Below are positions 19,640 through 59,334 of a stretch of 64,000 nucleotides of DNA, piece by piece. The translations under genes were made by a program, and so were the position numbers. The notes beneath the pieces are model-generated. The model ran no database searches, was not told the DNA's origin, and saw nothing but the letters and a program-made list of their open reading frames with translations. Position 1 is the first letter of the stretch, and every line of letters begins with the position of its first letter. Origin of the DNA: Marsupella aquatica (taxonomy: Eukaryota; Plantae; Marchantiophyta); contig OZ316892.1 of the NCBI GenBank assembly GCA_973895155.1, positions 18,032,357-18,096,356 on the forward strand, written 5' to 3'.

Positions 19640-22600
19640 CAGCACGTTCAGTAGCGACTAGAAGAATTTCCACTGAAGGAGGTTGGTAAGGACAATGAGC
19701 ATACTCCTGTTCAATCTCCCCCTCAACCTGATCACTCACCGGTGATTTTTCCTTTCCCTCAACATTGTCAGCAGGTGCTTTCCCCCCCCATTCAATGTTG
19801 GTGCTTCATTGAAGTACACATGCCTGCTGATGACCAGCTTGTGCTTCATTGGATCCCACAATATGTAACCTTTGACTCCAATCTGGTAGCCAAGGAAGAT
19901 GCATCGCGTAGATTTCTCATCTAGCTTACTACGCTCATGCTCAGGCAACAAAGCATAGGCCTCACATCCAAACATGTGCAATCTAGTATAATTAGCTGAT
20001 CTCTTATGCCACATCTCAAATGGTGTCTTGAATTAAATGTTGCTAACTGGATAGAGATTGAACAAGAATACCGTTGTGTTTACAGCCTCTGCCTAAAACT
20101 CCTTGGGTAATCCAACCTGATTCATCATGCTCCTTGCTCTATCCAACAACATTCTGTTCAAATGTTCGGATACACCATTATGCTTTGGGGTGTAGACATT
20201 AGTGAAATGCCTTGTGATTCCTTCACTCACAAAAAATGGTGATCTCCTTTGAGATATACTCACCTCCATTATCCGAATGAAGATACTTCACCCTTTTATC
20301 TGTCTGGTTCTCCACCTGAGCCTTCTAGCACTTGAAGGTATCAAAAACTTCAGACTTCGCTTGCAAGTACCCACACATACTTAGAGTAGTCATCACTGAA
20401 TGAGACATAGTACCTCTTACTAGATATTGAGAGGTTTGCGGACTCCCACACATTAGAGTGTACATACTCTAGAATGCCCTTGGAGTTATGAACTCCATCT
20501 CCAAAACTTTGTTTGGTCTGCTTGCCAAGTACAAAATGCTTATAGAACTCAAGCTTGCTGACTTAGCACTGGTTAAGAGATTTTGCTTACAAAGGATGGC
20601 CAAGCCTTTCTCACTCATATGGCCCAGTCGTGCATGCCATAATGCTAGCAATTAGCTCCAGAAGAAAACATGTTAGCTGTCTCCACAAGGGTAGTACCTT
20701 CCAACACATGTTAATCTCCTTCTCACCATGCATGACTATGAGATCATCTTTGAAAACATTCAACACTCCGTCTGTGGTAGCCCATGGGTAGCCCTTGGTG
20801 TCCACTGTGCCAATGCCAATGATCTCACAAGGGTGATCATTCCCCATGAAAACACTGCCAGTGCGCTTCTCATACGTTGAGAATAATTCCCTAGAAGGCC
20901 ACATATGATACGAGCAAGCAAAATCTAATATCCTGTGCATATCAGTGCCATGTGTGGATGTGCACAATGCATAACCTACATCATCACCTGTAGTTACATT
21001 TGCTTGATGTGAGGACTCTCCTATCTTTTCCTTTGCTCTTGCAGTTTGCTCTAATGTGGCCCATCTTCCCACAATTCCAACATTCCCACGTTCTTTGAAT
21101 CTCTAGGCCTAGAGTCTCTTGACTTTGATTTTGACAGTGACCTGAACCTTGTTCTGCTGGACGATCTCTCCCTAGATCTCTTGGTCACTGTCAACGTTGA
21201 TGATGAAGATGGCGATGACAATGGTTCACCAATCGTCTTCCTCACTTCATCAGACAAAAGAGTGCTGACAGTTCCTTCATGCGTCAAAGAGGTTCTCCCA
21301 TACAATATGGTCTAAACCAGATGCTGATACGACTTGGGCAGTGAGACTAAGAGAAACAATGCCTTGTTCTTGTCTTCAACCTTATGGTCAAGTCTGACAA
21401 GCTCTGCTATGATCAAATTGAAAGCATCAATATGATCATGCATTCTTGTACCTTCTGACATCTTATATGTCATCAGCTTCACGGTAGCGTATAATTGTGT
21501 GGACAACAATGTCTTCTTGTACATAATTCCAGCCAACTCCAAAGCTCCATTGGAGACTTCTCGGTGTACACTTGTAACAACACACCTGTGCTAAGTGCAA
21601 CCGGATCATGCTTGTCTCTCAAGCACACAGATCTTCCCACTTTGCATTGTCAAAATCATGTCCCTTCTCCTTCAATGCCGTTGATAGTCCTTGAGACACA
21701 AGGACATCCTTCATCTGAACTTGCCACAAAGTGAAGTTGTTGTGGCCCGTGAACTTCTCAACATAGTATCGTGCACTTGTTGCCTTCTTAGAAGCCATAG
21801 CTCCCAAAAATTGAGTGAAAAATGAAAGTTCACCAAATGAAAATCCGATGACACCAGTGCAAACTCTCCTCAACTAGCTTGTCACTACACAAGTTAGAAC
21901 TTTTATCCGAATCTTGAGTCAAAAGTTATGAACAAATTTGACAAGGGGGTTAAAACCTTGTCACTTCTCCAAAACTCCCCCATTTTGACCCCCGTGGAGA
22001 ATCACTGAAATGTAGTTGGGCACCCAATGTTGGAACCATAATTCAATCGGTGCACCTCGTTACTACCTTCAACAGCTACGAACTCGCCAAAAATGAACGG
22101 AAAAAAGGTTGCGTTTGACAGTCGACAACGGCGATGGACGGTCAAAAAGCAGATCTCTATTTTTCAAGAATATTTTCTCATAGAGCCGCAAGGCTCACAA
22201 GGGGCTGTTCCCCTTGTCAAAGCGGTTAAAATGGAGGGCAACAGGTCCTTGCCCTTGCCGCTTCACACGAGAAAAGTGAACACCGCTGACGAGAAAAGTT
22301 GTTGAATTGCACCGGCATCGTCTGCAAGCTCAGACTATAGAGAAAAAACTTTTTGTCACAACTTCTCCTCTCCGCGCCAAGTGCTGATCCCGGACTCAAA
22401 ATGATTGCTTCACCGCGTTCTCTCCGTTGAGCCTCAACACAACGCGTTTCTCCCACCGAGCTGATTGTGACAACACAAGACCTAACTCAGTAAGACCTAA
22501 ATCAGTCAAGACTTAACTCCATAGCTCATCAAGAAAAATCTGAGTCCCTCTTTCGCTCAGCACGATGCACTTAGGAATCAATCGGCCGTAACTCAGCAAT

Positions 22601-24426: not shown

Positions 24427-26912
24427 ATGGCGGGAGGGAATCGACTGTACCTCGCACTCGGGCTATTGGCCCTGATGTGTAGTGCTGTTCAAGCGCGCCA
24501 TGTTGATCTTGGTATGGTTGCCACTACCGTCTTTCCATTTTAGACGTATCTCTCGGACTTCTTGCGACAGACTCGGAAATTAAGCCTGTGTCTGACAATT
24601 GGGTTGTTCGTCGGTCGTTATTGAGGTGCATCAGAGGACAATAATTTCGATACATGTATGAAATTCTTAAAGTCAAACCTTTGGTAATGCTGTCGCTTTG
24701 GTCGTGGGCATGGTTATCGGGTACTTCTGAGTTATGGAAGGGACCTTTCGTCACGACGCTCTTGTTGAATTTTCAAAAGATCTTTGATCGATATGTTCGT
24801 TCGGAATCGTCAGGTCCGGGCTTTCTTATGTGGTCCTGATTGGTACACTAAATGAAAGAATACGATGTGTTGGGGAATGGAAACCAAGTCTCTTTAGAAC
24901 AGAATCTCTGTTGACTGGAGCCTTTGAAGGTCGGAATAGGTAATTTTTACTTTGCTGCCTATGGTCAGGTGAAACGCAAGCCGTGCCGAACATGGTCTGT
25001 GATGCGTGCCTACAGTTTTCCACCGAAGCTCAGATGATACTCGCTGATCCTGCGACTCAAAGGGAGGCCGTTCAATTAGTATCCCAGATGGCTTGCCAGT
25101 CGCTCCCACCCAAGCTGCAATCCAAGGTTAGAAATGCGTACTTGGCCGAGGTTTTGCTCTTCTTCTATTTGGCTCTTTGATTGAGATGGTGACGCTCTCC
25201 GGATAGGCATGGCGTCGCAATGTGATTTGTTCGTCATCCTTTACATGTGTGATCGCGGCAATGGTACACAAGTCATTTTTTGGTTAGGGCACACTTAAGG
25301 TCCCTCGTTTCTCTTGTGAGTGGATCACTGATTCTCGTAAAAAAATGTGATAGTCGTCTTGGAGTTTTAGTTTGTGACTGTTCCATGGAGTGCATCAACA
25401 CGTTGGGACCTCGTCGCAAATGCAGAGTTCTGTCATGGGTTTATGTTCTGGGTCAGTTTGTGCTTTGCAGCCGTGTGTAATGTTGTTTTTTCTTCTGCAG
25501 TGTTTGGAGCTGGTGGACGTCTACGTGACGGATGCTTTCATAGCTCTAGAAGCATATCTGGGGCCTGAAATCTGTACCGAAGCCGGCCTCTGCATTCCTG
25601 AGTCAACCAGATTCAGCCGTAAACGAGTAAAGCTATCTCATCGGAAACTAGTTGCCAATGCCAAGACCTGTGCACTCTGTCAAGATTTTGCGACCGATGC
25701 TCTTTCCTACTTGGATAGGAACACCACGAAGGAGAAAATCATTGGTGCCCTTCATCTTGCATGTTCTAGACTGGAGGAAATCAGCAAGCAGGTTGGTAAT
25801 GGTTTTCGCTGTCACGCAGGATTCCTATACCTCGATATGTCCAATTTTTGTGGGATTTTTTGTTCAGTGTCTATTAAATTCTGGGTGGCAGATGAGGTTT
25901 GGCTTCCTACTCTTTGGAGCGTGCTGTGCAGATCGATCATTACAATATATGTTCGCTCAGAAGCATTTAGGTCGGCTAACAAATGACTTCGTTGCTTTCA
26001 GTGTGATCTTCTTGTGGATGTATATGCTCCTGACTTGATGGAGCACTTGGACGACTTGACTCCTGAGGAGTTGTGTGAGATAACCCATCTATGCCAGCCT
26101 ACCAGCAAAACTATTCGTGTTGGATCTAGTAATGATTGTGCTATCTGCCAATTCGTGGTCCTCGAGGTGAAGTTAAAGCTCAGAGATCCTCTAACGCAGG
26201 TACGCTTTACTTCCAGTCATTCGAAGTTATCCATGCAGCATGCGGGGGCTGTTCTCTCTGCAACTGTTCTGTTTATTTAATTAAAACCGCCATGAGCTTT
26301 TGGATTATAGGAACAATGCCTGCTGGGGTTTTTTGCGGGATGGTAGACTAAATTTTTATTCTAATCTCCTGTCTTGCATAGCTATTCCCGAGTTGAGTTC
26401 GCATTGCTTGTAAATACCTATTAAACACGTAGCACCATGCTATGAATACGGAGTACGAGTCGACGTTTTGTTCCTGGGGCAAATTTTCACGGGCAAGTTG
26501 GTATGGATACGTGAGTGGGATTATTTTGCGTGGATGTGCAGGAAAGGATCCTGGACGTGCTTTTGAACGGTTGTAGCAGGGTGCAAAACCATGTCGATGA
26601 GGTCAGTGCAGCCTATAGTTTTCCAGCTTGTATGTTCTTTGCTAATGATGGTCAAAAATAGGTTTGAGAACAATCCTCGGCTACTACTTGTTTGGATTAT
26701 TTGTCCTCACCTTCGTCTGTTGGTTGAAACAGTGCAAGATGATTGTTACACAATATGCGCCGTTTATTTTGGCGAACTTGGACAATATCCTTGATGCAGA
26801 TGCTTTGTGCTCAAAGATAAAGGCCTGCCAATCTGCCAAGTTTAATTCTGTTGACTCAATTATTACCCTGTACTCTGAAGGGCAAGCTCATCGTCATGTC
26901 TTTGACTTTTAA
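24427..26912 (+). CDS. Prosaposin-like protein with signal peptide and three saposin-B domains; exons 24427-24511, 24969-25126, 25501-25791, 26002-26199, 26542-26601, 26733-26912 (323 aa)
   Basis: Signal peptide MAGGNRLYLALGLLALMCSAVQARH, then three six-Cys SapB units (CDAC...C...C...C...C; CALC...; CAIC...). All introns are GT-AG and phase-compatible. An in-frame alternative ATG lies at 24409. Confidence 0.9.
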
Positions 26913-31807: not shown

Positions 31808-34800
31808 ATGGACAGGGGCTCTGAGACCAGGTCCAGCCATGTTGAAGGTTTCAATTCAATTGAACACGACGTTACATTGTCTTCTGAGTATACGAGGAGT
31901 TCGGTTGAATTACTTTGGAAACGAGCTACTAGAACAGGACGATTTGGCAGCAATGGAGTCTCCAAGACCAAGGAAGCAGAGTTGATAGGAATAGAAACAA
32001 ATTCATACGTTCCCTCAAAACGAATTGTAGAAAGGTGGCGGCGGTGATTTCCTCTCTGATAAAGTGGATTGCAAAGACACCACGAGGAGTCTAGAAACAC
32101 GACAGACAGAGTATTCCGAATCTAATTAAGAGAATGAAATTCTCTCATTCAAATTCGTATCTTAAATGACGGTTTCATGAAAATTGTTTTGTAAGCGAGT
32201 ATTAGAAGTGAATCTTTGTAATCGAGTATTAGAACAGGATGTGAAGAGGGCTGGAGTTTCGAAGAGAAGGGAAGTAGGTATCAAGACACCGAAAGCAATC
32301 CAACAGTTCCCTCAGAAAACAAGTTAGGAGCTGGTGGTGGTAACCTCTCCACCACGGCGCACATCTTATGGAATATTCAAGGGAACCAGAAGTATTGGAA
32401 CCCAAGATCGTTGAACCCAAATCTGGGAACGACAGTCTCTACTCTGAATAGTCATTGTCTTGGGTTTCATGAAACTTTCTATGATGTGCCGGTTAGATTC
32501 CCCTGTTATTTAGAAAATCACTGCATGAATCGCATTGCTTCCACCTTTAGCAGTTGCAGCTCTCGGTTGTTGAAGATTGCGGCGATGCTTTTCTTTCAGA
32601 TGATACACAACAAATCTTGCTACACACTTGGAGTTGCAGGAGCCTTTGTCACAGTCGAAGCAAGCCTTGAGATTTTAGAGGACAGGTTGATAGCAAGGTT
32701 GCGCAACTTTGAAGGCAAATGTAGCTTTTGCTGTTAGAGCAGATTCTTTGACCATGACACAACTCTGATTTAACTCTTATCATCGTTTTCCTTCAGAAGG
32801 CTCTGATGTATCGTCTGGAATACTCCAATGTTCTCAGGTTTCCGTTTCATTCTCATAGAAGGGATAGAGGAGGTTGACACGGTGTGTATCTTTCAGCCAT
32901 GAGATATCAAGGAAAATCTTTCTTCATCTGTAGCTTCATTTTCTTGATTGTGTGTCGTTATGGTGACAGACGGGGTGATTGTCTAAAGCCATAATTTCCC
33001 TCAATTGTTTTTAATATTTGGAGTAAATATGACTGGGGGTTTTGAACTGCCTTTAGTTTGATCCCGGCTTTGTGGAGGTTGGGGTCTTCTCTTCTCTCCT
33101 TTCCTCTTTACAGATGCTTCGTTCCTTCAGTCCTGTTTGGATGTTGGTGAGGGAAGGATGTGAATGGACCTGCTACTGGTGTACCTTTCCAAAAGATTGA
33201 TTCCAGTCCGTTTGATACTGACTGGATGCCACCTTGTTGACTTCTTGACAGATTTATGTTTGTAGTACTTTCTGAAATGTTATCGTATTTTGTCCGTCCT
33301 GGTGTGTTTTACTTTTTAGGCCTAGTACTGTGATCAGTGTTTCTATCTCAACCATCTGAGCCAGATACTTTTGAGGTTGAACCTTTTCTCAAATTCGTTT
33401 TACTTCACCGAATTTGAGTAAGACCTTGTCTGCTACGGACTAATGTCTGTCCTTGCAGCTTCCCATCATGATCAAAAGTAATAGTGATGGTCTTTGCTGT
33501 ATGATTGCAGTCAGGGAAGTGTTGGCCTTCACCTGAAATCAACTGCAGTTAAGAACAGGCGCCAGTGAGTTTAATCCAGAACCTTAACTTTAGTAAGACG
33601 AATTGACAATGCTTTTGCCACTGGAGCAATTGTCAATAATTTCAAAACTTTAAAGCCAGGACTTTGTGATATTTCAAATGCCCTAATTAGATAAGACCTG
33701 CTGCTCTTGTGGTGACAACGTGAAAATCTTTGTCCGGTATAAGCTGCTTCTCTCGTGTTGTGACGAAATTTTATGCATTAGGTGATCTTGGATTCTCGGG
33801 AATCTTTTTGCAAGGTTTGTTCTGTCTGTTCTCTGCGAAGGGATCTGTGTGTTATATGGATTTTATTGTATTCATAACTGATGGCAAATGTACGATGCCT
33901 TTGTACATCATGTGTCCAAATTTGGTCCTTTGGTTTGAGTTCAAAATCGCGGCTCCCATTGATGTCGGAAAGTATCACTGATGTCTTCCTTACCTAGTGG
34001 TTTTATCCAGTCTCGTAAAGGTAAGTCATGGAGTTTCAATTTGTCGGTGGTATTTGTTGCTCCTCATTTTCAAAATCGAAGCAGAGCTGGCTCTGCCATA
34101 TGAACTGCAGTTACTTTTGGCACTTTACTGGAAATCGTGGCTGAATCTGGAGACACACTTGGTTGGCATGCCACCCATCGGAGTCAGTTTGTTGTCTTGT
34201 ATTGATGCAATGGCACAAGTTGTTCCAAGAGAGGACATGGAATACAGTTATTCAATAACGGGCTCGTGTTGTGTGTGCAGAGAGGGACGAGCATATAAGA
34301 AGACAAATTGGTCCGTAAATGAATGTCTAGTTCTCCAAGCAGCCAAACGGGAGGAGAATGATAGACACGACAAGCATAGGGGAGCTAAAGAGAAGTGGCT
34401 GCTTATCGAGGACTACTGTTGGGACCATGATGTGCATCGGAGCGGACAGCAATGCAAGGATCGCTGGTACAGAATGGCCTTAGAATTCAAGAAGGTGTAT
34501 GAATATCAAAGAGCCATACCTTTTGGCAAATCATCTTACTGGCAACTCACTGGAGGTGATAGAAAGGACGCAAGACTTCCAATAGTCTTCCACCAAGAAA
34601 TTTATGAGGCAATGGTGGATTGGTACTTGAATTGCAAGCCTGGCAATGTGGTCATCGATACTTCGGTACAATCACCTGCAGATGAAGGTCTGTCGTCGAT
34701 CCCATTAGATCTTCTGAATATCTCAAATTAATGCCTTCAGTCTCCTTTCCTTCCCTTGTTTCTCCTTGCACCCTGTGAAAGAGAGGCGAAAGTAATCAAA

Positions 34801-35264
34801 TTGCGCTTAATGAGGAAAACTCAGGTGAATACGTTTGACAGTTGTCATACCGACTGGTCTCGTTCGCAGGAAATCAGGGAGCAAGTAATGGTGACTGCTC
34901 AGGGACAGATGAAGGTGACAGTGATAATCGCAGTGGCCACAGCATGGGAAAGAGCAAGAAAAGAAAGATAGTGGCAAGAGCCGCGGAGGGCTTAGGAGTC
35001 ATGGTGGAGCGCAGTGGAGTAGCGACACAAAAAGCATTGCTGGAATGTGAAGATCGGAAGGATCGGAGACTAGAGAAGCAACTAGAGGCCAATGAGCGCT
35101 TAATGCTGAGACAGCTGGAGGCAAATGAGCGATTAGCCGCAAAGCAGATGGAAGTGAAGGAACGAATTGCATCACGTTACATCACGGCTATCATAACTCT
35201 AGCTGACGCGCTGCGCGCTTTTTCAGTTCCCAGAAATGGTGAGGCTCGGCTGGGCGATCAATAG
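31808..35264 (+). CDS. Trihelix (Myb/SANT-like) transcription factor; confident exons 34281-34687 and 34870-35264, tentative first exon 31808-32034
   Basis: YKKTNWSVNECLVLQAAKREE...KWLLIEDYCWDHDVHRSGQQCKDRWYRMALEFKKVYEYQ...SYWQLTGGDRKDARLP (trihelix), a KSKKRK NLS and a C-terminal coiled coil. The first exon was chosen only because its phase-2 donor at 32035 matches the acceptor at 34280. Confidence 0.82.
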
Positions 35265-45475: not shown

Positions 45476-47415
45476 ACATACTCAGTATTAAGAAGCGAAT
45501 GAGTATCACTTATTGTAATAGTACCAAAGAAAGCAACTCCTGATGGCAAGACCAAAATCCAAGTGTGCCAAGATTTTTAAAAGTTGAATGCTGCAAACAG
45601 GAATGATCATTACCTTTACCCTTCATTGATATAGTACTAGATTTAATTGCTTTGCATGAGTTGTACAACTTTTTGGACGACTATTTAAGTTACAACCAAG
45701 TGTTAATAAGTAAAGATGTCACTTGTCTACCCAACCATTTATACGTAAAATACTACTCTCCTGTGCATAAACTGTTGGTATCATGTTACGGGGTCATGGA
45801 GGGACGCTATTTGGAGGATTTCCACACCTAAGGATGAGTATATTTAATTCCGCTCCCGGAAATGTAATTTTTGATCAAGTCTACCGACTAGCCATTCTCT
45901 GCTTTTGATCAAGTCCCATGGACTACACCACACACACACACACACACACACACTTCTACTGGTCGTTGTGGAGTGCTGTCACCACCCCCCTTTCCTTACT
46001 TGGTTGACCAACCCAAGCAAGGATTCCTTAGACACTTCCTGGGAAAGAACACAATCGTGAACCGGAAAACATAACGCAACACCAAACTTGAGAAATCAAA
46101 TCAAATCCATATCATTTGGTAAAAAGGATAACACATTGCAAGGACAACCTAGCCTCCTGCCGTCTGTCCAACTCCTGCCTCAATGGGGCAAGCGCTACCC
46201 TCTACCTCACTACTCTGACTCGGTTCCTCCTTCTGGTCCTCCGCTAACTTCCCGTAAGCAAACACTATACTGAGTTCCCCCCTAACTACTACAGGGCTCT
46301 CCCCCTAAATACCAAAAAACACACCAAAGCACCCCTCACGGGGCCACAACGATGGTGGCTTACCCTAGCGGCGCCGCTAAACCCTTCACTAAGAAACCCC
46401 TAAACTAAAAGCATGCGGCACACACATACTTCTAAAACCCTAAACCCTAAACTAACAATGGGGCCGATGGTGCTTTTGACGGCGCCCCAACATTACCCCG
46501 TGAACCCTGAAATTGCAAGGAACCCCACAATGGCCGAAACTAGGTGCCCTTCCACTTGCACTTCTGAGTTCACCCCTGGATAGCCCTCCTCCTCCTGATC
46601 ATGAATCACTCAATCGCTCATGAAACGGACATTGGACGACCAAGTTATGGCCGTTTCAGTATCCCATAAACCCAACTTCGCCAGGCCCTAACTTGCTCAT
46701 CCTGGCTCCGTTTGAGTAGCACCGCCTCTTGTTGGAATCAGCTCCGCGAGCTCTTTCCAACAAGCCCGTGAGTGACCCCTCACAAAAAAGTTGGAAAGTC
46801 AAGGGGCCGTACAACTACGTCCGTACGACCACTCTAATCCTCATCCTCTTCACTCACGGTGCCCTGGCTTGAGCCCCGTGAGTGGGCCTCCTCATCACTC
46901 TCCACTGGATCCACTGGAGTGAGTGCCACTTCAATCCTCTTCTTCTTCACCGGGGTACTCCTTGTGCTAGTGCTCCCCTGCTTCCTCAATTTGTCCAAGG
47001 CCTGTCACGCCTTGATGTACCCCTCACCAATGGTGTCCTTCCATAAGGCCGCCTCTTCACCAGACTGCAACTCCAACGGTAAAACCTGCTTGGTGGCCAT
47101 GGGAGTCCCAGGGGTGACAGATCGGGGTGGCATCCCCGTGTTGACCTAAGCCTCTCGTAACGATTTGCGTACCTCCCTGAGCTTCTTCTCTAAGCTCTTA
47201 CTCTTCTCTTGACTCTTCTTGGCTGCATCCAACAGGGGTCCATACTTCCCACTGACTTCCTTCACCACCATCTCAATGGCCCTGGAGATCAAATCCGGGG
47301 AAAGGGTGGAGCTAGGTGTGCAGGGGCTCTTCCGTTTCCCTAGACCCAAGGCCTCACTCCTCTTAGCCCTTGTCTCAAAGATCACCATTTGACTCCGTAG
47401 TGCTCCCACCTGGGC

Positions 47416-47745
47416 TGTCACACCATTCTAGGTAGTGTTAGAGTGTATCGTACTATCTAGATCCATATGTTTGGTATGTGTGCTATATGAGCCAATAAGG
47501 TTCCGTCAGGTTTGTGTGAGAGGGTACTTCTCACTTGTGAGGCATTGAAAGGTCATCTTTCAATGTTGAGCCTTGGAGAGAGAGGAGCTTGAGTGGCTAT
47601 GGTGGCTGTGAGCTCCGCTTGTGTAACGTGGATTCCTTGAGTAGTGCAAGGTGCATTGGCTTGACATACGTGTGTGATCGGATCGGTGCGGGATCGATGG
47701 GGTATTGTTGACCGGGATCGTTGTGCCGATTGTATGGAGATTACA
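47416..47745 (+). repeat. Repeat A1 (3' part of the LTR)
   Basis: Matches 55563-55886 with 5 substitutions and one 4-bp indel. It starts TGTCAC and ends ...GGAGATTACA. Confidence 0.92.
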
Positions 47746-47754
47746 TTGAAAGAT
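47746..47754 (+). promoter_or_regulatory. Putative self-priming primer-binding site
   Basis: ACATTGAAAGAT (47743-47754) is the exact reverse complement of ATCTTTCAATGT (47555-47566) inside the LTR. There is no TGG-type tRNA PBS. Confidence 0.6.
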
Positions 47755-48891
47755 CATGAGCTTCAAACTCTGTTGTGCGGACAGAAGCTCAGTCTGAGTT
47801 TATCGTTGACGGTGACGGTTCGTGGTAGCTCAAATCAATTGGATTTGTGTTTGACGCGGATCCATGTTTCTTGAATCGTTGGTTCTATTGTTTGAGTACT
47901 CTGTTGCTATTCGATCTGGTTCTGGCCAAGCTTGAACGTTGTTGGATCTGGATCTGGTCTAGATCTGGATTGAGTCGGAGTCTAGATCTGGATCTGGAAA
48001 GAGATGGCCGAAGGTTGCTGCTTGTATCGCACTATTGTTTTGTGGACAGATCTGTTGGAATTTTGAGTGCTCGCAGTGTTTTATTGTCAAGGGATGCTTG
48101 CGAAATGTCCCAAAACCGTGCGCGACAGGTTTGCAGAGGTCGAGAGCCATCGACGTTGCCGTTTTTGCGAAGGAAATCGTTGCTTTTGAGTGGCAAATAT
48201 TGCCATTTTTGAGCCCAACGACTTCTATTTTGTGTACACACACAACTGTGCGCGCATAAGGTGACGCGTGAGGTCATCCATCCCGAAAGTGCTCCCAACC
48301 GCGAGCGCAAGCAAGCGCGAGGTCGAGGTCACCCATCCCAGGGCTATTCCGGGTCGTGAGCGCGAGGGGAGGCACGAGGTCGACCACGAGGAGGTCACCC
48401 ATCCCGGGGCTATTCCCAGCCGCAAGCGCTTAACTAGCAACTCATCCCACCTTGTGTACACACAAGTTTTCACAACTTGTTGTTTAGATTCAAGCGCCAG
48501 GGGGCTTTATACACTTTCCGGTTTGCTTAGAGCCTTGTTTCGGGCCAAATCATAGGCTCTTTAGAGGTTTTTGATAGTTTTAAGTTCATCTAAATACACA
48601 AATTGAACCAATTGTGCATGGTTTTTCATCTATAACATTGGGACATCATGAAGCCTATTATGAAGGCCTTTCATTGAACATTATGAATATTGGTTTGATC
48701 AATGTGTGATCACTCTTGGTGTGGAGAGTTAGTGTTTGACTATTCTTGTTGATTGGATCCTCTCCACACTTGTTTCCTGTTTATGCGTCATGTTGGTTCA
48801 GTGTGTGCGCTTGATTCCATAGGAGTGATCCGGGTTTGCAACTGGACATTCTAGTGTGCTGTGTATTTCTCTCCTGGTGATGTTGGAGTGA

Positions 48892-49520
48892 TTCTTTGAG
48901 GTACTGAAGCAGAACTATCAGGGTGTAAGAACTGATAAGTTGAAGGGTCTTTAGGAGTTCCAGCGCAAGACTGGAGAGAGTCTATATGAGGCATACACTC
49001 GTATGCGTAGATTAATCACTGTCACCAAGGGAGTGACAGAGGCTCAGGCAGTCCAGTTTTGGTATGCAATTCTGGACAGAGAATTGCGACGCAGAGTGAG
49101 AGATGTCACTTTGCTTAGGGATGCAGATCCCACATTAGCAGTTGTTTTTACACTTTCTGAGCGCATTGAGCTCAATATGGTGAATGAGAAGGTGGTGACT
49201 TCCGGATTTGCCAAGGAAGCACCAAAGGCTGCATCCACATCCACACCATAGCCTACTGCACGGAAGAGCCAGAGGGAGAAGCCTACTGCACGAGAGTCTA
49301 CCAGCCAGAGACCTGTGCCCTCTTATGTTGGACAGCAGTCAGGATGTTGGACCTGTGGTGAGGATCATGCACAGAGATATTGCCCAGATCATAGAGGATC
49401 AGGGGGAGCATTAGCGCCTGATCAACGATAGTGTGATCACTGTGGAGCTCCTGGACACACCAAGGATAGGTGTTTCTCACTCCATCCTGAGTTACGGAGA
49501 GGAGGATCCCATACACATGA
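48892..49520 (+). pseudogene. Gag remnant with two zinc knuckles
   Basis: EFQRKTGESLYEAYTRMRRL (retrotransposon gag major-homology-like), CWTCGEDHAQRYC (from 49345) and CDHCGAPGHTKDRC (from 49432). In-frame stops are present and the N-terminus was not found. Confidence 0.82.
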
Positions 49521-50254
49521 TCAGGGAACAGCTAGCTGCCATGGCTAGTTCCCAGGTGAGACCTACTTCTGGTGATGGGGCATCAACATCCTATGGACCT
49601 TCCACATCCCATGGTCCTTCCACATCTTATGGAGCTGATAGAGACCTTGCCACCATGGGATTCATGTGTGGCACTGCACACATTGATGCATCAACAGCTT
49701 TGACAGGTGGGGCAGCCAAAGCTCTTGAGCCCCGAGGAGTAGTAGTGGAGTTAGATCCACAAAGGGGGGGTGCACGTCGGCAGACAAAGCTTCCTCAGTC
49801 TTTTACATTGTCAGAGACAGTTCAGACTGCCTCTATGAACCCGGTTTGGACAAACCCTGATGTGGGTAAGTTGGCAAAATCAGGTAGTGATGCAGCAGGG
49901 ATGACAGGTACCTTGTTGGGGGCGGCTACTGCCATGGTATGCGCCCCATTATTTTCAGCGACAGACATGCTGAACTTGGAAGTTGGTCCTACAGAAGTGT
50001 TCAGATTGGCAGCTACACTCTGTGAGGACACTCCAGTGGTTGCTTCCCATGCAAAAGCAACTTGCAGTGTTGATATAGTGAAGACCATGCCACCTACTGT
50101 TACTAGTGAGACATGGCATGCAACAGCAGCGAGGTTGGTGGATTTACCAGCACGCCCTGCATTTGAGAGGACTAGGTTTAAACCTAGTGTTGTATCATTG
50201 GATAATCGGAGTGGTATCTTCCGATTAGTTGGGCCTTCTGGAGCAGTATACTAG

Positions 50255-50600
50255 CCAGAGAGGGTGTTACTGGATACTGGTGCTCATCCCTTGATGTTGG
50301 GAAAGTCTGCCATATGTGGATTGGGATTGCGTCCAGAGGATTTGGAGGATTGTCCCTTTCCCATTCAGACTTCATTGGGGGGACCTACACCTACACAGCA
50401 CATTACCAGGAGACCTCTTGATTTGAGGATTCAGGAAGGTCATACCACAGATAGCTCACAGATACAGGCGCGAGCTATTCTAACTAAGGCATAGTCATAT
50501 GATGTGTTGGTGGGATGTACAGTGCTCTACCCCATGGGATTTATTCTTGATTTTTGGGAGGAATCAGTGTCATATAGACCTGATTGGCAGTCAGGAGATG
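50255..50600 (+). pseudogene. Retropepsin aspartic protease
   Basis: RVLLDTGA (Asp at 50273) and downstream SYDVLVG, in the same frame as the MTase and RT. Confidence 0.85.
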
Positions 50601-50980
50601 CTTGATTGAGAAAATTGCCAGTGAGATTTAGTGGACCTATGGGAGGCCCTAAATCCACACCATTGTCTTTGGCAGCATTCAGTGGTCTAATTGCTGGACC
50701 TGATGATTTGATTGAGGGTAATGCGCATGCAGCAGATGTTCCACCATTGGAGGAGTCTCATAAGGAGCACATCATGCGAGGATTACCTATTGGCAGTGTT
50801 GTGCCACCAGTGTGGGGCACTGCACAGGCCTTGCCACAGACAGCAGCACAATTGGTACATGATGCATGGCGTCATGCTTTTACACCACAATCAGGAGCAC
50901 GACAGCCTCTTGCAGATGGACCTGTGACTCTTTCACCATTGGATACCACTCCTATTGCTTGGCAGTATCCACCGGAGGGT

Positions 50981-51930
50981 ATTTGTTTGTTGGATCTTTT
51001 TGGTGGGATTAGCATTGGATTGGCTGCTGTTCTTCAGGTAGGAATTCCTGTGCGTCGTTATTTGTATGTGGAGTCAGATGAGACAGCACGGAGGGTCTCA
51101 TTGCGACATGTGGCTATGTTGGTGGATAGATATCCACAGTTGCTGCCAGTGGATGCTGTTCGTGGTTATCAGCATGCACTACCTGCTGATATTTCATTGC
51201 TGGGGGCAGATCATCTACATCGTGTTGGCCCCATTGATTTGGTGATTGCTGGTTGGCCATGTCAGGGCCAATCTAGAGCTGGCGTTGGGCATGGACTTCA
51301 TGATCCACGCTCTGCATTGTTTTGGGAGATGTTATGGGTGCTGCGTCATCTCCAGCTACATCAGACACAGTCTCCAACATACATTTTGGAGAATGTGCCA
51401 TTGTTAGGTGATGATCGTAGTCGGATTGTTGCCAGTGTTCACCAGGTGAGGTCTTGGATTGGACCTGCTGTGTTATTGGATGCTGCACGTGTGGGTTCTC
51501 ATGCACTTCGTCCACGCTTGTGGTGGACTAATTTGATCCCATGTGAGGTGCTGAAGCGCGCATTTGACAGCATTCCATGCTCACCAGCCTTAGTGGTGGA
51601 TGATATTTTGGATCCAGGGTGTCGTGCACAGGGTGTGACCCAACCTGATAGACCTCCATTGGCAATGGTCAATGCAGTTGGGTGCCCACGTTGTGCATTA
51701 CCCACTCTTGTAAGCCACTCTACTTCATATGCATTCAAAGCAGGTGGCCCTGGACTTGTGTGGGACACAGCTCTCCAGCAGTTAGTGGAACCTACTGCTG
51801 ATGAGAGAGAGCGTGCTATGGGATTTTTGACTGGCACCACTGCAGTTGCCTCTGTGTCAGAGGGTTTGCGGCGCCAGGTTCTTGGTCAAGCAATGGACCT
51901 AAATTGTTTGACTTGGATTATCAGCTTGGG
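50981..51930 (+). CDS. DNMT3-like C5 cytosine DNA methyltransferase domain within the pol frame (ORF 50606-52117)
   Basis: Motifs in linear order: I LLDLFGGIS, II YVESD, III ADI, IV DLVIAGWPCQGQS (catalytic Cys codon at 51260), V SALF, VI YILENV, VII-VIII LLDAARVGSHALRPRLWWTNL, IX ERERAMGF, X RRQVLGQAM. Confidence 0.92.
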
Positions 51931-52267
51931 AGTAGCTGAACAGTTGCGGATGCGCTCTGCTGGAATTACTGATTGTCCCTTGGTGAGCTTGCGGTCCACT
52001 GAGACAGTACTGACCATAGCTGGGGGTGAGCAGACAGTCCATGGACCTATGGCAGGATTGGCCAAGGCTGGACAGATTGTTGAGCAGGAAGGGACTGCTC
52101 AATCTACTGCTAAATAGCAATCATCGGCTATCTCTTCTACCCTACAAAGAGATATTAGGGATTTGGTGGAGAGTTGGGAACCACAGCTTGGCCCTAAGTT
52201 GATAGGGGAGGAGAGACGTCGCATGCATCGATTCCTGAAGAGTTACTGAAATTGTTTTGCATTTAGC

Positions 52268-53616
52268 ATGAAAGATTTGGGGACATTAAATGGTCCTGGT
52301 ATTCAGATTGAATTGGCTAGTGATGCGCCAATCTTTCGTAGGCCATACCGTTATAGTGACATGGAGAGAGCTCTGATTCAAAGCAGAACTCAAGATTTGT
52401 TGGAGACTGGATTGGTGGAGATTTCATATGGGGAGTATGCATCTGCCACAGTGATGCCAGCCAAGAAGGATGTGCATGGTAATTACACAGATAGGCGCAT
52501 GTGTGGTGATTACAGACCCATTAATCGCCAGACAAAATCTGATAGATATGCCATGCCCACACCTGAGGAGATCTTTGATGTTGTGGGGCATGCAAAGGTT
52601 TTCAGTTCATTGGATTTGAGGGCAGGGTACCATCAGCTTCCAATTAGGCATGCTGACAGGTCCAAGACAGCATTCTGGGGGATTGATTCTTATGGCAAAG
52701 ATCGTTTGTATCAGTGGTTATTCTTACCATTTGGGTTGAAGAATGCACCAGCTAAGTTCCAGAGAGTCATGGATCGAATCCTTGCAGGTTTGGATTTTGT
52801 CAGATGTTATATTGATGATATTTTGGTCTATTTTTCTACTGTGGAAGAACATCACAGCACTTGCAGACTATGTTGGAGAGATTGAGAGCACATGGGTTGA
52901 AGCTCCATCCTAGCAAGTGTAAGTTCTTCCAAGACCAGATTGAGTATTTGGGCCACACTATATACCTAGGGGGATTGGGTGTACATCAGACTAAAGTGGA
53001 GGCCATTACACAGATTCCTTGTCCTACTGATGTGAGTAGAGTTTGTGCATTCTTGGGATTGGTGAGCTACTACAGGAGGTATGTTAAAGGATTTAGCCAG
53101 CTTGCTAAACCTTTGACCATACTCACTAAGTTGGATCAGGAATGGATTTGGGGTGATGACCAGGAGCATGCCTTTCAGGAGTTGAAGCAAAGGTTGGCAT
53201 CATCCCCTATTTTGAGAAGACCCATTTCAGGCAGACCATTTCAGCTACACACTGATTGGAGTGGAGTAGGACTTGGAGTAGTGCTGACTCAGAAGGATGA
53301 TGAGGGGAATGAGTTTGTTGTGGCTTATGCCAGTAGATCAAACAATTCAGCAGAGGCTAAGTATAGCTCTTATGAGGGAGAGTATTTGGCAGCAGTGTGG
53401 GCTGTTGCACACTTTCGTTGCTACTTGTTTGGTAACCCCTTCACCTTGATCACTGATCATCAGCCTCTTAAGTGGTTAATGGAGTCTGACAAGCTTACAG
53501 GGAAGCTTGCACGATGGGCATTGTTGTTACAGGAGTATGATTTCCAGATGGTGCATAGGCCTGGAAAAGTGAACTTGGATGCAGATGGATTAAGCCGCAA
53601 TCCATGTACCAGTTAG
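52268..53616 (+). pseudogene. Ty3/Gypsy reverse transcriptase and RNase H (one frameshift near 52860)
   Basis: RMCGDYRPIN, SSLDLRAGYHQ, LPFGLKNAPAKFQR, YIDD (52808-52819), YLGH, FQLHTDWSGVGLG, YSSYEGEYLA, TDHQPL, RWALLLQEYDF, NLDADGLSR. Confidence 0.96.
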
Positions 53617-53989
53617 CAGGATGAGACTGGAGCCAGATGACATGATGAGTCAGATAAGGAGATGGTGCCAGGATGACATGCATCTGCCTTTCTTTGTTGG
53701 GTGTCAGCATACAGTGGATCTGTGGACTCTACCTCATTGGATGGAGTGGATGATGAGTCTTCAGATGTGGATGTTGGTGAGGTAACTTTTGGACAGCAAG
53801 ATATTCACAATGATGTGAGAGTGTTGGAATATCTGCGCACTGGTTCTATTGTTGGCAGTGTTGATGCCAAAGAAAGTGACAGGGTTCTACAAAGAGCCAA
53901 GAGGTTTCGATGGGAGGGAAACCATCTTTTGAGAGTACTGCATGATGGTAGGGTGTTGGTGGTACCAAAACCATCACAACGAGTACATT

Positions 53990-55100
53990 TGGTGCGACAT
54001 GCACACGAGGAGTTGGGTCACTTTGGTGTGAAGCGCACTTATAGCTTGCTGCAGACACAGTATTGATGGCGTGGTATGCACACTCATGTCTAGCAGTTGA
54101 TAGCTAAGTGTGTGGTATGCGATAGAGTGAGAGCATCATTTAATACTCCCACTCCCCAGTTGTACCCGTTATCGATCATGGGTTTGGGATATCGTTGGAG
54201 TTTGGATTTTGCTGGTCCATTACCTCTTACCCAATGCCATAATTGGTATGTTTTGGTCATGGTGGAGCACTTCTCCAAGTGGATTGAGCTAGTGGCGTTG
54301 CCAGATAAAGCCAGTGGAGGAGTTGCTGCTACATTTTTGGATCGCGTACTCAGTCATTTTGGAGCACCAGCTGAGGTGTTGACTGATCAGGGAACTGAGT
54401 TCCGTGGAGAGTTTGAGAGTTTGAGAGTTTGTGTGAACAAGCTTTGATTGATCATCGTACTACCTCTCGTGATCATCCTGAGGCAGATGGATTAGCTGAG
54501 AGAGTTGTGCAAACTGTGAAGAGAGGATTGCGTAAATATGGCTTGCAGGTTGGTCATCTGGGAGATTGGGATCTCCAGCTACCTTGGTTAGCTATGGGCT
54601 ACTGTTTCAGTCGGCAAGCATCACTTGCATCCTTCTCACCTTACTTTTTGCTCTATGGTAGAGAGCCAGATTTGCCAATAGCTATTCGTCGTGATGCTGC
54701 ACCAGTTGTGAACTTGGATGATCCTGATGTTTGGGTCAAGGTGTGTTCAAAGAGAGCATGGGTATTTCAGAGAGTGATGCCCATGGCTTTTGACAACCTT
54801 GCCATTGCCCAACATCGTGATACTTTGAGGTATGCCACTATTCGTGGAGGAGGTTACCGTGCAAGCATTCGATAATTTCATCTTGATGATTATGTTTATT
54901 TGCAGCAGACAGCACTCACAACACTTGATGTGACCGCAGGCCGGACAATCTTACGTGTGCGTGAAGTGTTACCTTCTAGTGTCCTGATGTTGGAGGGACG
55001 CGATGGTATGGTTTGGAAGGATCATGTTTGCAACTGTGCACCATGTCACCTTCCCAACATTGATGGTACAGTAGATCCAAGCTTGGCACATGTTCGTGCT
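53990..55100 (+). pseudogene. DDE integrase
   Basis: HEELGHFG...CVVC (HHCC), WSLDFAGP, LTDQGTEF, HPEADGLAER. An 8-bp duplication near 54420 causes a frameshift, and a few stops are present. Confidence 0.93.
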
Positions 55101-55109
55101 GGCTTGAAA

Positions 55110-55250
55110 TGTATGTTGTGTGGATCTGCTCAGGGAGCAGCTACTATGTTGATTTGTGATAAGTGTTCTAGAGGATGGCACATGTCATGTTTGACACCAC
55201 CATTGTAGGTGATTCCTAGTGGATCATGGTTGTGTCCTCAGTGTCGGTGA
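55110..55250 (+). pseudogene. PHD finger (C4HC3) at the integrase C-terminus
   Basis: CMLCGSAQGAATMLICDKCSRGWHMSCLTPPL*VIPSGSWLCPQCR* has all eight Zn ligands and one internal stop. Confidence 0.9.
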
Positions 55251-55410
55251 AGCCGACTAGTTATCATTTGTGTTCTCTTGGCAAATATGGATTGCAGGTA
55301 GGTGATCGATGGGGCTCACTTGCACCCGGCCTCCTGATCTTCACACCTAAAAAGGTGTATATCAACCTTGTAGAACTCATGGCTAGCTAGAGTTAGGGGA
55401 CCTTACTCCC

Positions 55411-55424
55411 AGCTAGGGGGCGAT
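55411..55424 (+). promoter_or_regulatory. Polypurine tract
   Basis: AGCTAGGGGGCGAT immediately precedes TGTGGG, the LTR start. Confidence 0.7.
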
Positions 55425-56023
55425 TGTGGGTTTTGGACATGTGTGGACATGAGTTCCACTTGTATTCCATTCTCTTGTGTTTGTGATGTGGCAGTGTGAC
55501 TATGTTTGGATGTATGTGACAAGCGATGTATGTTGTGTAGCGATGTGTATGCGCACGACAGCTATCACACCATTCTAGGTAGTGTTAGAGTGTATCGTAC
55601 TATCTAGATCCGTATGTTTGGTATGTGTGCTATATGAGCCAATAAGGTTCCGTCAGGTTTGAGAGGGTACTTCTCACTTGTGAGGCATTGAAAGGTCATC
55701 TTTCAATGTTGAGCCTTGGAGAGAGAGGAGCTTGAGTGGCTATGGTGGCTGTGAGCTCCGCTTGTGTAACGTGGATTCCTTGAGTAGTGCAAGGTGCGTT
55801 GGCTTGACATACGTGTGTGATCGGATCGGTGCGGGATCGTTGGGGTATTGTTGACCAGGATCGTTGTGCCGATTGTATGGAGATTATTGTGGGTTTTGGA
55901 CATGTGTGGACATGAGTTCCACTTGTATTCCATTCTCTTGTGTTTGTGATGTGGCAGTGTGACTATGTTTGGATGTATGTGACAAACGATGTATGTTGTG
56001 TAGCGATGTGTATGCGCACGATA
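55425..56023 (+). repeat. B1-A2-B2 terminal repeat block (LTR B+A followed by a second B)
   Basis: B1 55425-55560 and B2 55888-56023 are both 136 bp and differ at 2 positions. A2 55563-55886 matches A1. Confidence 0.93.
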
Positions 56024-56312
56024 GGGCTCTTAACTCCACCACTTCTCCAGAATTCTGCTTCTCTTTGGCCAATGCCTATTTCAATACTCCAACCTCTTCC
56101 GCTTCCTTGGCCTTGGTGGACAAGGCTCCCTTCAAGTTGGAGATCTCTACGTGAGCTGCTTGGAGAAGCTTAACCTTCTCATGAATGGCCTCCTCCTTGG
56201 CCTTGATCACCTCCTTCATAGACAGGGCACTCTGCTCCAAAGTCTCTACTCTGGCGATGGTCTGCTTGAGAGAATCTCTCAATGCGTGGACTAGCTTGAG
56301 TCCCTCATGGAC

Positions 56313-56612
56313 CCCCTCGCTTACACCCCGGCAGCCCCTTTCGGGGCTTCACCTACTCGTAGGGCGGCCCTTCGTCTCGCGCCCCACGGCTCGCGAGCTC
56401 TTCCTCCTCGCGGCTGCCCCTCGCTTACGCCCCGGCAGCCCCATTCGGGGCTCCGCCTACTCGCGGGGCAGCCCTCCGTCTAGCGCCCCACGGCTCACGG
56501 GCTCCTCCTCCTCACGGTTGCCCCTCGCTTACGCCCTGGCAGCCCCATTCGGGGCTCCACCTACTCGCGGGGCAGCCCTCCGTCTGGCGCCCCACGGCTC
56601 GCGGGCTCCTCC
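56313..56612. repeat. 104-bp GC-rich tandem repeat, about 3 copies
   Basis: cccctcgcttac(a/g)ccc.ggcagcccc.ttcggggct... starts at 56313, 56417 and 56521. Confidence 0.92.
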
Positions 56613-59334
56613 GCCATATTACACCGGGGCCAAGAAAAACTGTCGGGGTCTCCAAATATTAATGGGTGGTATCCCCTTAAGATGCCTAATTTTCTTCTCC
56701 CACAACGACAAGACCCAAGAGAGCAAAGGGTCAATTAAAAAAATAGTTCCTCCCTGGTTCAAATAGCCCCGGCCCTCCAGAGAAACATGAACACACACCG
56801 GGATGATTAACTTTTAAGAAATTAAAAAAAATTGAAAAACTCTTGTGTATATTGGCTTATTTATTTACATGCACCTTGCCAATAACACCTAATGGTGACC
56901 TTTCGAGATGGGGACCCCGTCACAAAAGAAGATAGGGATATTAAAATCACGTTCACCACCGACTGAGAATCTATACCTTTATCATGATACCATTCAGATT
57001 ACGTAATGTTCTAGAAACTTTTCAGAGGATCATGATGATCATTTTCTATGAATACTTGAAATATATTATGGAGATCTTCATTGATGATTTTGCGTTATTG
57101 GGTCAACTATTGATCACTTAATGTATTTGGAAAGAATTATTCAAAAATATAGAGAAGCTCAATTGTGCTTGCACCCAGAAAAATATTTTATTGGAATGAG
57201 ATAAGGCATCATACTCGGACTTGTTATTTTACAATGCGAGATTAAAATTGACAGAGAGAAAGTTTGTGTCATTGTAGAGCTTCAACCACCTCCTAATTTG
57301 AAACAACTTTGAGCCTTTCTAGGACATGTTGGGTATTAATGTCGTTTAATTTATAAGTATGTTGACCTTGCTTAAACAACTCTAACTCAATTACTGAAAC
57401 CATATAAATAATAAGTTTGGATTGAAGAGAGACAAAAAAATATTTCAAAATCTTAAGGATAAACTTATTACAGCCCCTATTCTTTCACTTTCGGAATGGA
57501 AATAAAAATTTTATATTTTTATAGATTCATAAACGTTTTTCATGAGAGAAAATCTCAGTTAGAAAGATAAAAATAATAAGGATCATTTGATTTACTATGT
57601 TTGTAGATAGATGAGAACGACGGAGAAAAATACATAATAACGGAACGAGAAACCTTAGCCATACTTTTTGCTTGCAAGAAATTTTGTCATTATCTTTTGG
57701 GTTACCAGATTATTTTTTATACAAATTATAACTCTCTAAAATATATGAGGGATCTATACATCCGGAAGACTTGCATGTTGAGTACTCTTGGTTCAGGAAT
57801 TTGATTTTGAGATACAAGTTTGTCCTAGCAAGCACCATGAGAATGTTAATTTTTTGTCCAGACTTTTAGGTGGAGAAAATAAGAATAACATTTTTGATGA
57901 TCTCCCAGATGAAAATATCTGGCACATTGAATTAGAAGCTTCAAAGTACTTTAACATTGTTGAGATATTGATTCATGATGTGTTTCTAGAAGGTCTTAAT
58001 GCAAAAAAGAGAACAAATTTTCCGCACAAAGTATGACCCTATACTTTTTAAAATTATTTTATTATATTAATTGATGATTATAGGATGTTGAGTGAGAATT
58101 TACAACTATTCATTACTGAAGAGTAATCATCAAAATATCTAAGAAATAATTTTATAAAACTAATAAATCTTGGAGCACATGCAAAGGTTTTATTGTTGTT
58201 TAAGTTATCAAATCAATTTCATCTATTTTTTAAGGAAATAAAATTTTGGTAAAAAAAATAAGATTAAATTTTTAATTTTTATAAAATATTAAATAAGATT
58301 TTTTGCATTATTATCCTGGAAAAAATCAAGATTGATTTAAAATACAAGCAATGAATGTCAAACAAAATATTGATTTAAATAAAACTTTGATGAAACAAAT
58401 AAACAATCTCTTGCAATCTAATACATTATCAACACGTATGACTCTACCGAATCAAGAAGGAAAAAACTATGGCGAATTGACAACGGATGCTACAATTAGA
58501 TGAAGAACCTAAGCTACTAGGCCCGAAGAAGAAATTCAAGCAGAAGAAGGAAAGCCAAGGTGAAATAGTGAAGGAAACACTCAGGTTGAAGGGAGAATTA
58601 CTATAGAGCCCAACCCCAGAAATCTGATTGAACTCTTACTTGGAAAAGAGTAGTCAACAATTCAAGGGAGAATCGGAAACAAGAGAGAATCCAGCCTAAC
58701 ACACAGAAGAAATATGATTGTTGAATGCAACACTCAATTGACTTCATCCTAGGACATTGCAAAAAGAACAAGAAACACTTGAGCAAAAATCACAAGGACC
58801 TCGCAGAGAGAATCAAACTCAGAACCACCCGAACCAACAAAAAAAGGTCTGGAACAAACACTAAAACAAGGAAAGGAAAAGCAGAAAGCTATGGAGACGA
58901 CAAAAGACCTGAAGAACAAATTCAAGGGGAAAGCAATTGAAGGATCAAGAAGAAACAGAATTGAGAAGTGAGAATTGAGAAAGTGACATTTCTCATAAGG
59001 AATGGAATGACCTAAGCACTCAGGACTACCCTGGGCATTGCCGTTGCACTCCACATTGCCCTGCTGCACGACGTTTCTTGGTAGAAATGGAGTAGACCAA
59101 GGTTGGCTCATTCTGTGTCCTCCCCGTAGCTTTGTTAATACAAGTAACAGAATGCAAGCATACTCCCATTCACATGTGATAGTCCTCCCACAATGCAGGG
59201 CGTCATCTCAGTCGTTGGCATTTGTGTAGGTGCCAACAAGAAGGTTAAGGACCAATGTTATTTAAAAAATGACGCCCATGATATAAAAGGTCCTTTTGAA
59301 CCAAGGGAAAACCTCACCCCGTGGAGATGTAACC

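Follow-up and report, generated by a model that had tools for sequence, protein, structure and literature searches.

Since 2018, the question has stood of why a retrotransposon should keep an enzyme that normally silences it, and the known hosts of such elements are hard to handle. The window analysed here, a stretch of 64,000 nucleotides from Marsupella aquatica, raises this question in a land plant. It contains a decayed copy of a Ty3/Gypsy retrotransposon carrying its own DNMT3-type methyltransferase (Table 1). The element spans 8.6 kb (47416-56023), with the same 4-bp target duplication, GGGC, on both sides. Its regions follow the order Gag-like, protease, DNMT, RT, RNase H, integrase and PHD finger, within which the domain scan recovered the Gag-PR-RT-RNase H-integrase order of Ty3/Gypsy elements; the TG..CA ends, short target duplication and polypurine tract (PPT) of that group are likewise all present, and the Gag-like family profile matches copia VLP and retroviral nucleocapsid. 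The window copy is dead, with 15 premature stops besides that at 52115, plus several frameshifts. Two contigs of sequencing run X2 join the flanks 47411 and 56024, as an empty target site, and contigs cover the element in all 30 bins for three of the four runs. The decay of the copy, the PHD finger, and the split repeats, self-primer and palindromic internal att site described below are additions to the initial annotation of this locus.

Table 1. Features of the retrotransposon copy, in positions of the window
Feature	Position	Strand	Basis
Left target-site duplication GGGC	47412..47415	.	Sequence; empty site in run X2
Repeat A1, 5' terminal repeat; starts TGTC, the left integrase end	47416..47743	+	Repeat comparison
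Predicted self-primer (predicted RNA 5' end), complementary to the PBS	47555..47566	+	12 nt; paired in predicted fold
Predicted primer-binding site (PBS) right behind A1, without tRNA-type TGG start	47743..47754	+	Complementarity
Gag-like region with CCHC knuckles; stops inside, frameshift after (48838 is not a mapped Gag start)	48838..49545	+	66% identical to Marchantia P0003
Aspartic protease with LLDTG motif (50267-50281), interrupted by in-frame stops (50252, 50492)	50180..50602	+	PF13650 E 0.002, below the curated cut-off
DNMT3-like C5 cytosine methyltransferase domain, stop-free	50939..51955	+	PF00145, PDB matches, AlphaFold, Foldseek, motifs
Conserved amber stop closing ORF1, then CAATCA (UAG-CARYYA, predicted readthrough site)	52115..52123	+	Clade comparison
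Reverse transcriptase, with YIDD at 52808, plus RNase H; one stop, frameshift near 52850	52118..53613	+	PF00078, PF17917, PF17919
DDE integrase, zinc-binding and core; several stops, frameshift near 54410	53800..55070	+	PF17921, PF00665
C-terminal PHD finger, one stop	55101..55250	+	PF00628 E 6e-7
Polypurine tract immediately 5' of B1	55412..55422	+	Sequence
Repeat B1, ends GACA	55423..55560	+	Repeat comparison
Internal B1/A2 junction: right integrase end set head to head with the left one, 2 nt between	55557..55566	+	Sequence and relatives
Repeat A2	55563..55886	+	Repeat comparison
Repeat B2, 3' terminal repeat, the right integrase end	55886..56023	+	Repeat comparison
Right target-site duplication GGGC	56024..56027	.	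Sequence

The sequence that received the insertion (46838-47411 and 56024-56330, minus strand) is itself repeated, and had a coiled-coil-like frame that the element interrupted; the empty target site is present at high summed depth in run X2. The terminal repeats of the window copy differ by ~1.5% (7 substitutions in ~460 bases), against the 15 premature stops of its coding region. Hence the copy may already have been partly broken before insertion, and have been mobilised in trans.

The frame at 50606-52114 comprises 503 codons, stop-free and intronless in the ORF scan of the window, and matches PF00145 (E 2.2e-9). Motifs I, IV, VI, VIII, IX and X stand in the canonical, non-permuted order, with the catalytic Cys present (DLFGG at 50993, GWPCQG at 51251, ILENV at 51383, RPRLWWTNL at 51509, ERERAMGF at 51803 and RRQVLG at 51869), bearing out the initial annotation, which had described a full C5-methyltransferase with SAM-binding, PCQ, ENV and RxR motifs. 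Its assignment to DNMT3, rather than to MET1/CMT or DRM, is also favoured, as a matter of similarity only. The single protein matched DNMT3A/B/C best among PDB sequences, with DNMT3A first (E 7e-9). The family profile matched DNMT3A/B/C at E 1e-16 to 7e-14, HaeIII at 3e-7 and chain 4onj, which we take to be a DRM, at 4e-6, with no DNMT1-type chain among the PDB matches listed at E 0.01. An AlphaFold model (pLDDT 88.5, pTM 0.90) retrieved only DNMT3 structures among the matches listed by Foldseek. By these similarities, DNMT3 appears to be the nearest type to the window enzyme, ahead of DRM, DNMT1/MET1/CMT and bacterial enzymes. Cys108, Glu151, Asn152 and Arg193 are invariant in 24 aligned DNMT sequences, and the catalytic Cys, ENV glutamate and RxR motif are retained between clades that are only 35-40% alike, with conservation of the Cys motif in the metagenome loci being biased by their selection using patterns that include it. 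In the sister clade (loci L062-L101), the catalytic loop reads Glu-Cys-Gln in place of Pro-Cys-Gln. That the DNMT frame is open although the copy is dead might suggest domestication. This reading was rejected: chance alone would give a stop-free run of 503 codons in ~28% of trials (P ~0.28), hence this frame is nothing special for the window copy.

The death of the window copy, and a dN/dS of 0.76 between the close decayed copies L033 and L034, as expected after insertion, might be taken to mean that the DNMT is a fragment captured from the host, or a chimera of the assembly, without a role in the element. This extremely improbable explanation is refuted by four observations. Firstly, in a survey of the best 80 of 311 metagenome loci, RT begins <=500 nt after the DNMT in 58. 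Secondly, Nei-Gojobori dN/dS of the DNMT was 0.09-0.16 in eight of nine between-family or diverged pairs, including the unsaturated pairs L041-L042 (0.14) and L067-L062 (0.09), with one saturated pair at 0.25; for protease and RT, the values were 0.06-0.19 in the same pairs where dS was estimable (eleven of twelve pairs were computed, one pair being nearly identical). Thirdly, the trees of the DNMT and of RT-RNase H are congruent. Fourthly, there is the contig cover of the element already described. The substitution ratios indicate that the DNMT domain is under purifying selection between families, as a selected part of the element. The initial annotation had regarded it as a component rather than a passenger, and had proposed dN/dS across copies as a check; both the linkage to RT and the departure from neutrality uphold it.

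The named relatives of the window DNMT come from Calypogeia (71%), many Marchantia polymorpha loci (59-76%) and Sphagnum (49-58%). Profile searching also found distant relatives, including proteins of Chlamydomonas, Monoraphidium and Tetrabaena, whose DNMT follows RNase H and precedes integrase. These proteins (P0044-P0144; named members from Chlamydomonas reinhardtii, Monoraphidium neglectum and Tetrabaena socialis) have the order RT-RNase H-DNMT-integrase-PHD, in full in 69 cases, and the chlorophyte-type elements are known here from proteins alone. The polyprotein ends in a PHD finger in both architectures. The protein and profile searches returned no named Klebsormidium protein among the DNMT relatives. 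The methyltransferases recovered from viral contigs were all distant (21 loci at 22-40% identity), and a single RT-RNase H fragment came up there. One complete-looking plant element, L181, sits in a cyanobacterial genome bin, and is probably a plant contaminant there. Elements with the DNMT before RT form a clade of 33 rows in the DNMT tree (60 rows, quick search; SH-aLRT 98), and the two architecture groups are likewise separated in the RT-RNase H tree (42 rows; SH-aLRT 100). The DNMT tree contains element domains only. Both trees are unrooted, and fit a single acquisition with relocation as well as two separate captures.

The position of the enzyme within the coding sequence determines how it would be expressed. 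The DNMT shares its frame with the upstream protease and the beginning of the downstream RT, and in the window is bounded by stops on either side, at 50603 and 52115-52117. The first of these is decay, the same place being open in relatives. The second is not peculiar to this copy. With the window included, the survey yielded 59 DNMT-RT linkers, of which 43 were in frame and 16, being shifted, were excluded before stops were counted. In the window clade, a stop occurs at the matching place in 23 of 23 in-frame linkers (17 TAG, 6 TAA), and is followed by CAR in 22 of these copies, as against 22 of 650 other in-frame stops; many of the loci are near-duplicates, such that the 23 copies amount to about three independent families plus the window. 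The stop-bearing elements form a clade in both the DNMT and the RT-RNase H trees (SH-aLRT 98 and 99, respectively). In the sister clade, by contrast, 14 of 20 in-frame linkers are stop-free and six have scattered stops, DNMT and RT being in one ORF there, as in P0100. Among database proteins, 30 of 36 end 11-181 residues after the DNMT, before RT or RNase H, in a search whose length limit favours proteins ending soon after the DNMT. As the stop at 52115-52117 is kept across the clade, the DNMT closes ORF1 (Gag-PR-DNMT) rather than being embedded in an uninterrupted pol. The initial annotation was thus right that the domain is intronless and in the same frame as protease and RT, but its continuous polyprotein, with the enzyme embedded in pol between these two domains, is broken by the conserved stop.

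Two loci show what this stop separates. At TAG-CAGTTA in L041 and TAG-CAATCA in L181, a long open frame for (Gag)-PR-DNMT meets, in frame, a second long one for RT-RNase H-integrase-PHD. The full CARYYA motif stands behind the stop in these two loci, in L042, in L049 and in the window, where the context AAA-TAG-CAA-TCA fits UAG-CARYYA, including the adenosines ahead of the stop. The available text of PMC3542737 describes UAG-CARYYA as the readthrough signal of tobamoviruses (TMV-type, or type I). Most ribosomes would be expected to halt at the amber codon, with a few percent reading through into RT-RNase H-integrase-PHD, a step that we consider likely. Translation of ORF2 through reinitiation, or from a spliced or subgenomic RNA, is quite unlikely, and would still leave the DNMT at the level of Gag. 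It would suit the large Sphagnum-like family (18 of the 23 copies), which has CAACCY instead of CARYYA and an ATG two codons past the stop, as well as L049 and the window, which have a Met at codons 14 and 36, respectively; some Marchantia and Sphagnum gene models also continue from the DNMT into RT. However, it is difficult to apply to L041 and L181, in which the first Met falls at codon 117, inside RT, and it does not explain why the frame is preserved across the stop and CAR conserved behind it. A Gag-Pol fusion is, moreover, the simplest way of packaging and processing Pol, and the protease lies within ORF1. Under readthrough, the DNMT would be produced at the level of Gag, and Pol at the lower level set by the stop, which predicts a large excess of DNMT over RT. 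Fusion to Gag also makes it more plausible that the DNMT is packaged in the particle.

Rather than two identical LTRs at the ends of the element, with the 3' LTR running from the PPT to the end of the element, the repeats are arranged as A-coding-B-A-B in the window and seven loci; the last B of L083 is truncated, and the layout in L037 and L047 is A-coding-B. Target duplications of exactly 4 bp flank nine of the 11 copies with both ends, with three of four bases matching in L047 and no duplication in L066. Contigs leaving the element at 55560 into unlike sequence numbered 21, 43 and 32 in three runs. The B1/A2 junction is a perfect palindrome in L033, L049, L071, L072 and L181, and one base off in the window.

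The sequence after A1 has no tRNA-type PBS, and instead complements a stretch 140-177 nt into A. This complement is 11-17 nt in seven of ten copies, each with 0 of 300 controls doing as well (12 nt in the window, against 0 of 300 control windows). It is weak in L033 (9 nt), no better than controls in L068 and L098, and falls on a second site in L075; L049 is too short for the comparison. In L041 and L181 it is 16 and 13 nt, equalled in 0 and 1 of 100 shuffles, respectively. The pairing of primer and PBS is maintained in four unrelated primer sequences, and TATA-like words occur upstream of the primer in three families, although the window has no clear TATA box. The window family is predicted to self-prime like Tf1: it is highly likely that the RNA would begin inside A1, and that its 5' end would pair with the PBS to prime reverse transcription.

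How the copied DNA would be inserted is a harder question. As the PPT lies directly before B1, reverse transcription should set B, not A, at the left end. Of 30 loci in which a 5' A repeat is present, none has B ahead of it. The siting of the integrase ends in a palindrome within the LTR suggests a circle-like intermediate, and cuts after CA on each strand of the junction would give two 3'-processed ends with 2-nt overhangs. In the reading that we find reasonably probable, ordinary LTR copying would yield B-A-coding-B-A, the ends of which would be joined A to B; integrase would then cut the upstream B/A palindrome with a 2-nt stagger, leaving two processed ends and an A-coding-B-A-B insert. 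A 2-LTR circle would have two equal palindromes, however, and does not account for the asymmetry between them in the 30 loci; the absence of a duplication at L066 also sits poorly with this reading. B2 is nearest its own B1 in only three of five copies, and A2 its own A1 in four of five, by row, a kinship hinting that the repeats are renewed in each cycle.

A closed circle would be unneeded if A and B were joined by an end-to-end RT template jump, giving a linear B-A-coding-B-A-B-A-like concatemer from which integrase trims the outermost palindromes. This is a doubtful alternative, which accounts for B never preceding the 5' A. Also in its favour, the A2/B2 joins show an overlap of 1-2 nt, with 1-3 nt of variation within one clade, and B2 is truncated in L083. 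Against it, no frequent length variant of the A2/B2 join is present among the matches listed for the host-like runs, and the A-coding-B copies with duplications (L037, L047) fit one-LTR circles, although recombination between B1 and B2 after insertion also explains them.

Three further candidates for informative junctions were set aside. The A/B join of L043, with PBS-like letters, is ambiguous, the copy being rearranged; none of 78 matches to a 14-base junction pattern encodes element domains, and they were taken as chance; and the 127-base end overlap of L181, a candidate proof of a circle, was read as an assembler artefact of repeats.

It is with this expression and replication cycle in mind that the role of the enzyme must be considered. 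Our favoured account, held with moderate confidence, is that a first frame encodes Gag-PR-DNMT3, and that the enzyme is made and packaged at the level of Gag, likely methylating the element's own new cDNA. Its last step, in which the DNMT would act on unintegrated DNA, probably at CG, for protection or a preset chromatin state, is finely balanced. In the available text of PMC5890265, the Symbiodinium DIRS DNMT3 enzymes methylate CG in yeast, and the Klebsormidium Gypsy-DNMT3, the only one of its kind assayed in print, gave no methylation in the same assay, which those authors deem inconclusive. That result, and the Glu-Cys replacement in the sister clade, count against this account, as do the possibility of reinitiation in the Sphagnum-like family, the failure of the primer comparison in L068 and L098, its weak outcome in L033 and the match at a second site in L075.

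CG composition offers the account no help either. The observed/expected CG ratio is 0.29 in the coding region of the window element, versus 0.61 for the rest, and depletion was considered as a sign of self-methylation; this was rejected, as host methylation explains it and intact relatives are less depleted. Relatives with open frames have ratios of 0.55-0.78, a mild depletion, and CG counts in the window and these relatives bear no footprint of heavy self-methylation.

The same yeast result, Glu-Cys loop and weak CG depletion, together with the PHD finger that ends the polyprotein in both architectures, would fit a DNMT3 fold that works chiefly by binding DNA or chromatin, or that methylates host or target DNA, such as the insertion site in concert with the PHD finger, rather than cDNA. 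We consider this unlikely, as the catalytic Cys, ENV Glu and RxR are kept across 35-40% distance, allowing for the selection bias on the Cys among metagenome loci. Returning to methylation of the cDNA, a broader and tentative proposal is that of an old, green-plant-wide Gypsy lineage, in which the integrase sites moved to the middle of the LTR and circle-like cDNA is integrated, and in the bryophyte branch of which a leaky stop loads DNMT3 at capsid stoichiometry to methylate the cDNA, possibly steering which palindrome is cut; a CG is placed 4-5 bp from the right end in seven of nine copies.

This combination of features overlaps with several known systems. The closest is KnitGypsy-Dnmt3 of Klebsormidium nitens, a Gypsy element with DIRS-like repeats described from a charophyte only (de Mendoza et al. 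2018, PMC5890265, as far as its available text extends). The initial annotation's view that the window element is related in kind to the charophyte Gypsy-DNMT3 elements is sustained by their shared features: according to that text and the legend of its Fig. 4c, both have Gypsy domains, an intronless, non-permuted DNMT3 under purifying selection, and DIRS-like repeats. By comparison with this published description alone, the window element differs in having a land-plant host, and in having its DNMT at the close of a Gag-PR-DNMT frame with a conserved stop, the DNMT of KnitGypsy-Dnmt3 being placed in the Pol ORF with RT; the available text does not describe a target duplication, self-primer, internal att palindrome or PHD finger (PMC5890265).

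The A-coding-B-A-B layout and DNMT3 domain are similarly found in SymbioDIRS-Dnmt3 and the layout in DIRS/Ngaro elements, on the available description (PMC5890265). Unlike in DIRS/Ngaro, the integrase of the window element is of the DDE type, its ends are TG..CA-type and its target duplications 4 bp long, and no tyrosine recombinase was detected in the translated segments scanned from the window and its relatives. Use of the RNA 5' end as a primer, with the PBS after the 5' repeat, is shared with Tf1/sushi and moss Tcn1, and some fission-yeast Tf1-type members set Gag:Pol by an in-frame stop (both from the available texts of PMC6317226 and 10.1101/2022.12.06.519325). The window element departs from Tf1/Tcn1, as described there, in placing the stop after PR-DNMT rather than after Gag, in its split repeats, and in having a PHD finger, with no chromodomain match in the segments scanned. 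Foamy virus integrase is reported to cleave the palindromic junction of 2-LTR circles (PMC1180852, available text), and a palindrome of two att ends is likewise the substrate proposed here; unlike that described for foamy virus, it lies inside the LTR rather than at the cDNA ends, and is copied inside every full insert. The resemblance of AAA-TAG-CAA-TCA to the TMV-type signal is qualified by the one large family with CAACCY, in terms of the motif given in the available text of PMC3542737.

The initial annotation knew of no characterised land-plant example, and the Calypogeia, Marchantia and Sphagnum relatives now place the family in land plants beyond Marsupella, with no prior land-plant description found. 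In the portions available, the commentary PMC6338049 states that DNMT-bearing elements are absent from land plants 'such as tracheophytes'; PMC12344493 and bioRxiv 10.64898/2026.05.21.726589 refer to KnitGypsy-Dnmt3 as from 'streptophytes', and their supplementary trees may include bryophyte sequences; and PMC6317226, PMC6453930 and 10.1101/363937 do not mention DNMT-carrying elements. A full-text literature search, with most subscription papers and repeat databases outside its scope, found no land-plant description, and none of the stop, primer or palindrome. This kind of element is published from a charophyte alga, and within the scope of that search the bryophyte form with the conserved stop is new as a land-plant variant.

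Elsewhere in the window, a trihelix gene (Myb/SANT-like, PF13837) at 33982-35264 shows 96% identity, across 61% of the query, with a protein of Calypogeia fissa, and 87% with one of Marchantia paleacea; this one gene points to a leafy liverwort as the likely host. A near-perfect inverted repeat at 9163-9623, with arms of ~165 nt and a spacer of 132 nt, is MITE-like. We also take 3748-4986 to be a gene with RanBP2-type zinc-finger-like motifs and glycine-rich spacers, and 25378-25986 to have a saposin-like cysteine pattern; 95-505, 20611-21102 (minus strand) and 56900-57900 are presumably decayed copia-like and gypsy-like fragments, with no DNMT detected in them.

These elements matter beyond the single dead copy. 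Their end structure predicts a circle-like intermediate for integration, which is unusual among LTR elements, and pipelines requiring two equal LTRs would be expected to overlook them; conversely, their DNMT domains could be miscounted as host methyltransferase genes. The Marchantia polymorpha copies are annotated as hypothetical genes, leaving the lineage open to study there. With the family present in Marchantia, Calypogeia and Sphagnum, the question set out at the start, of why a retrotransposon should retain an enzyme by which it is normally silenced, enters a genetic model that already has met1 mutants.
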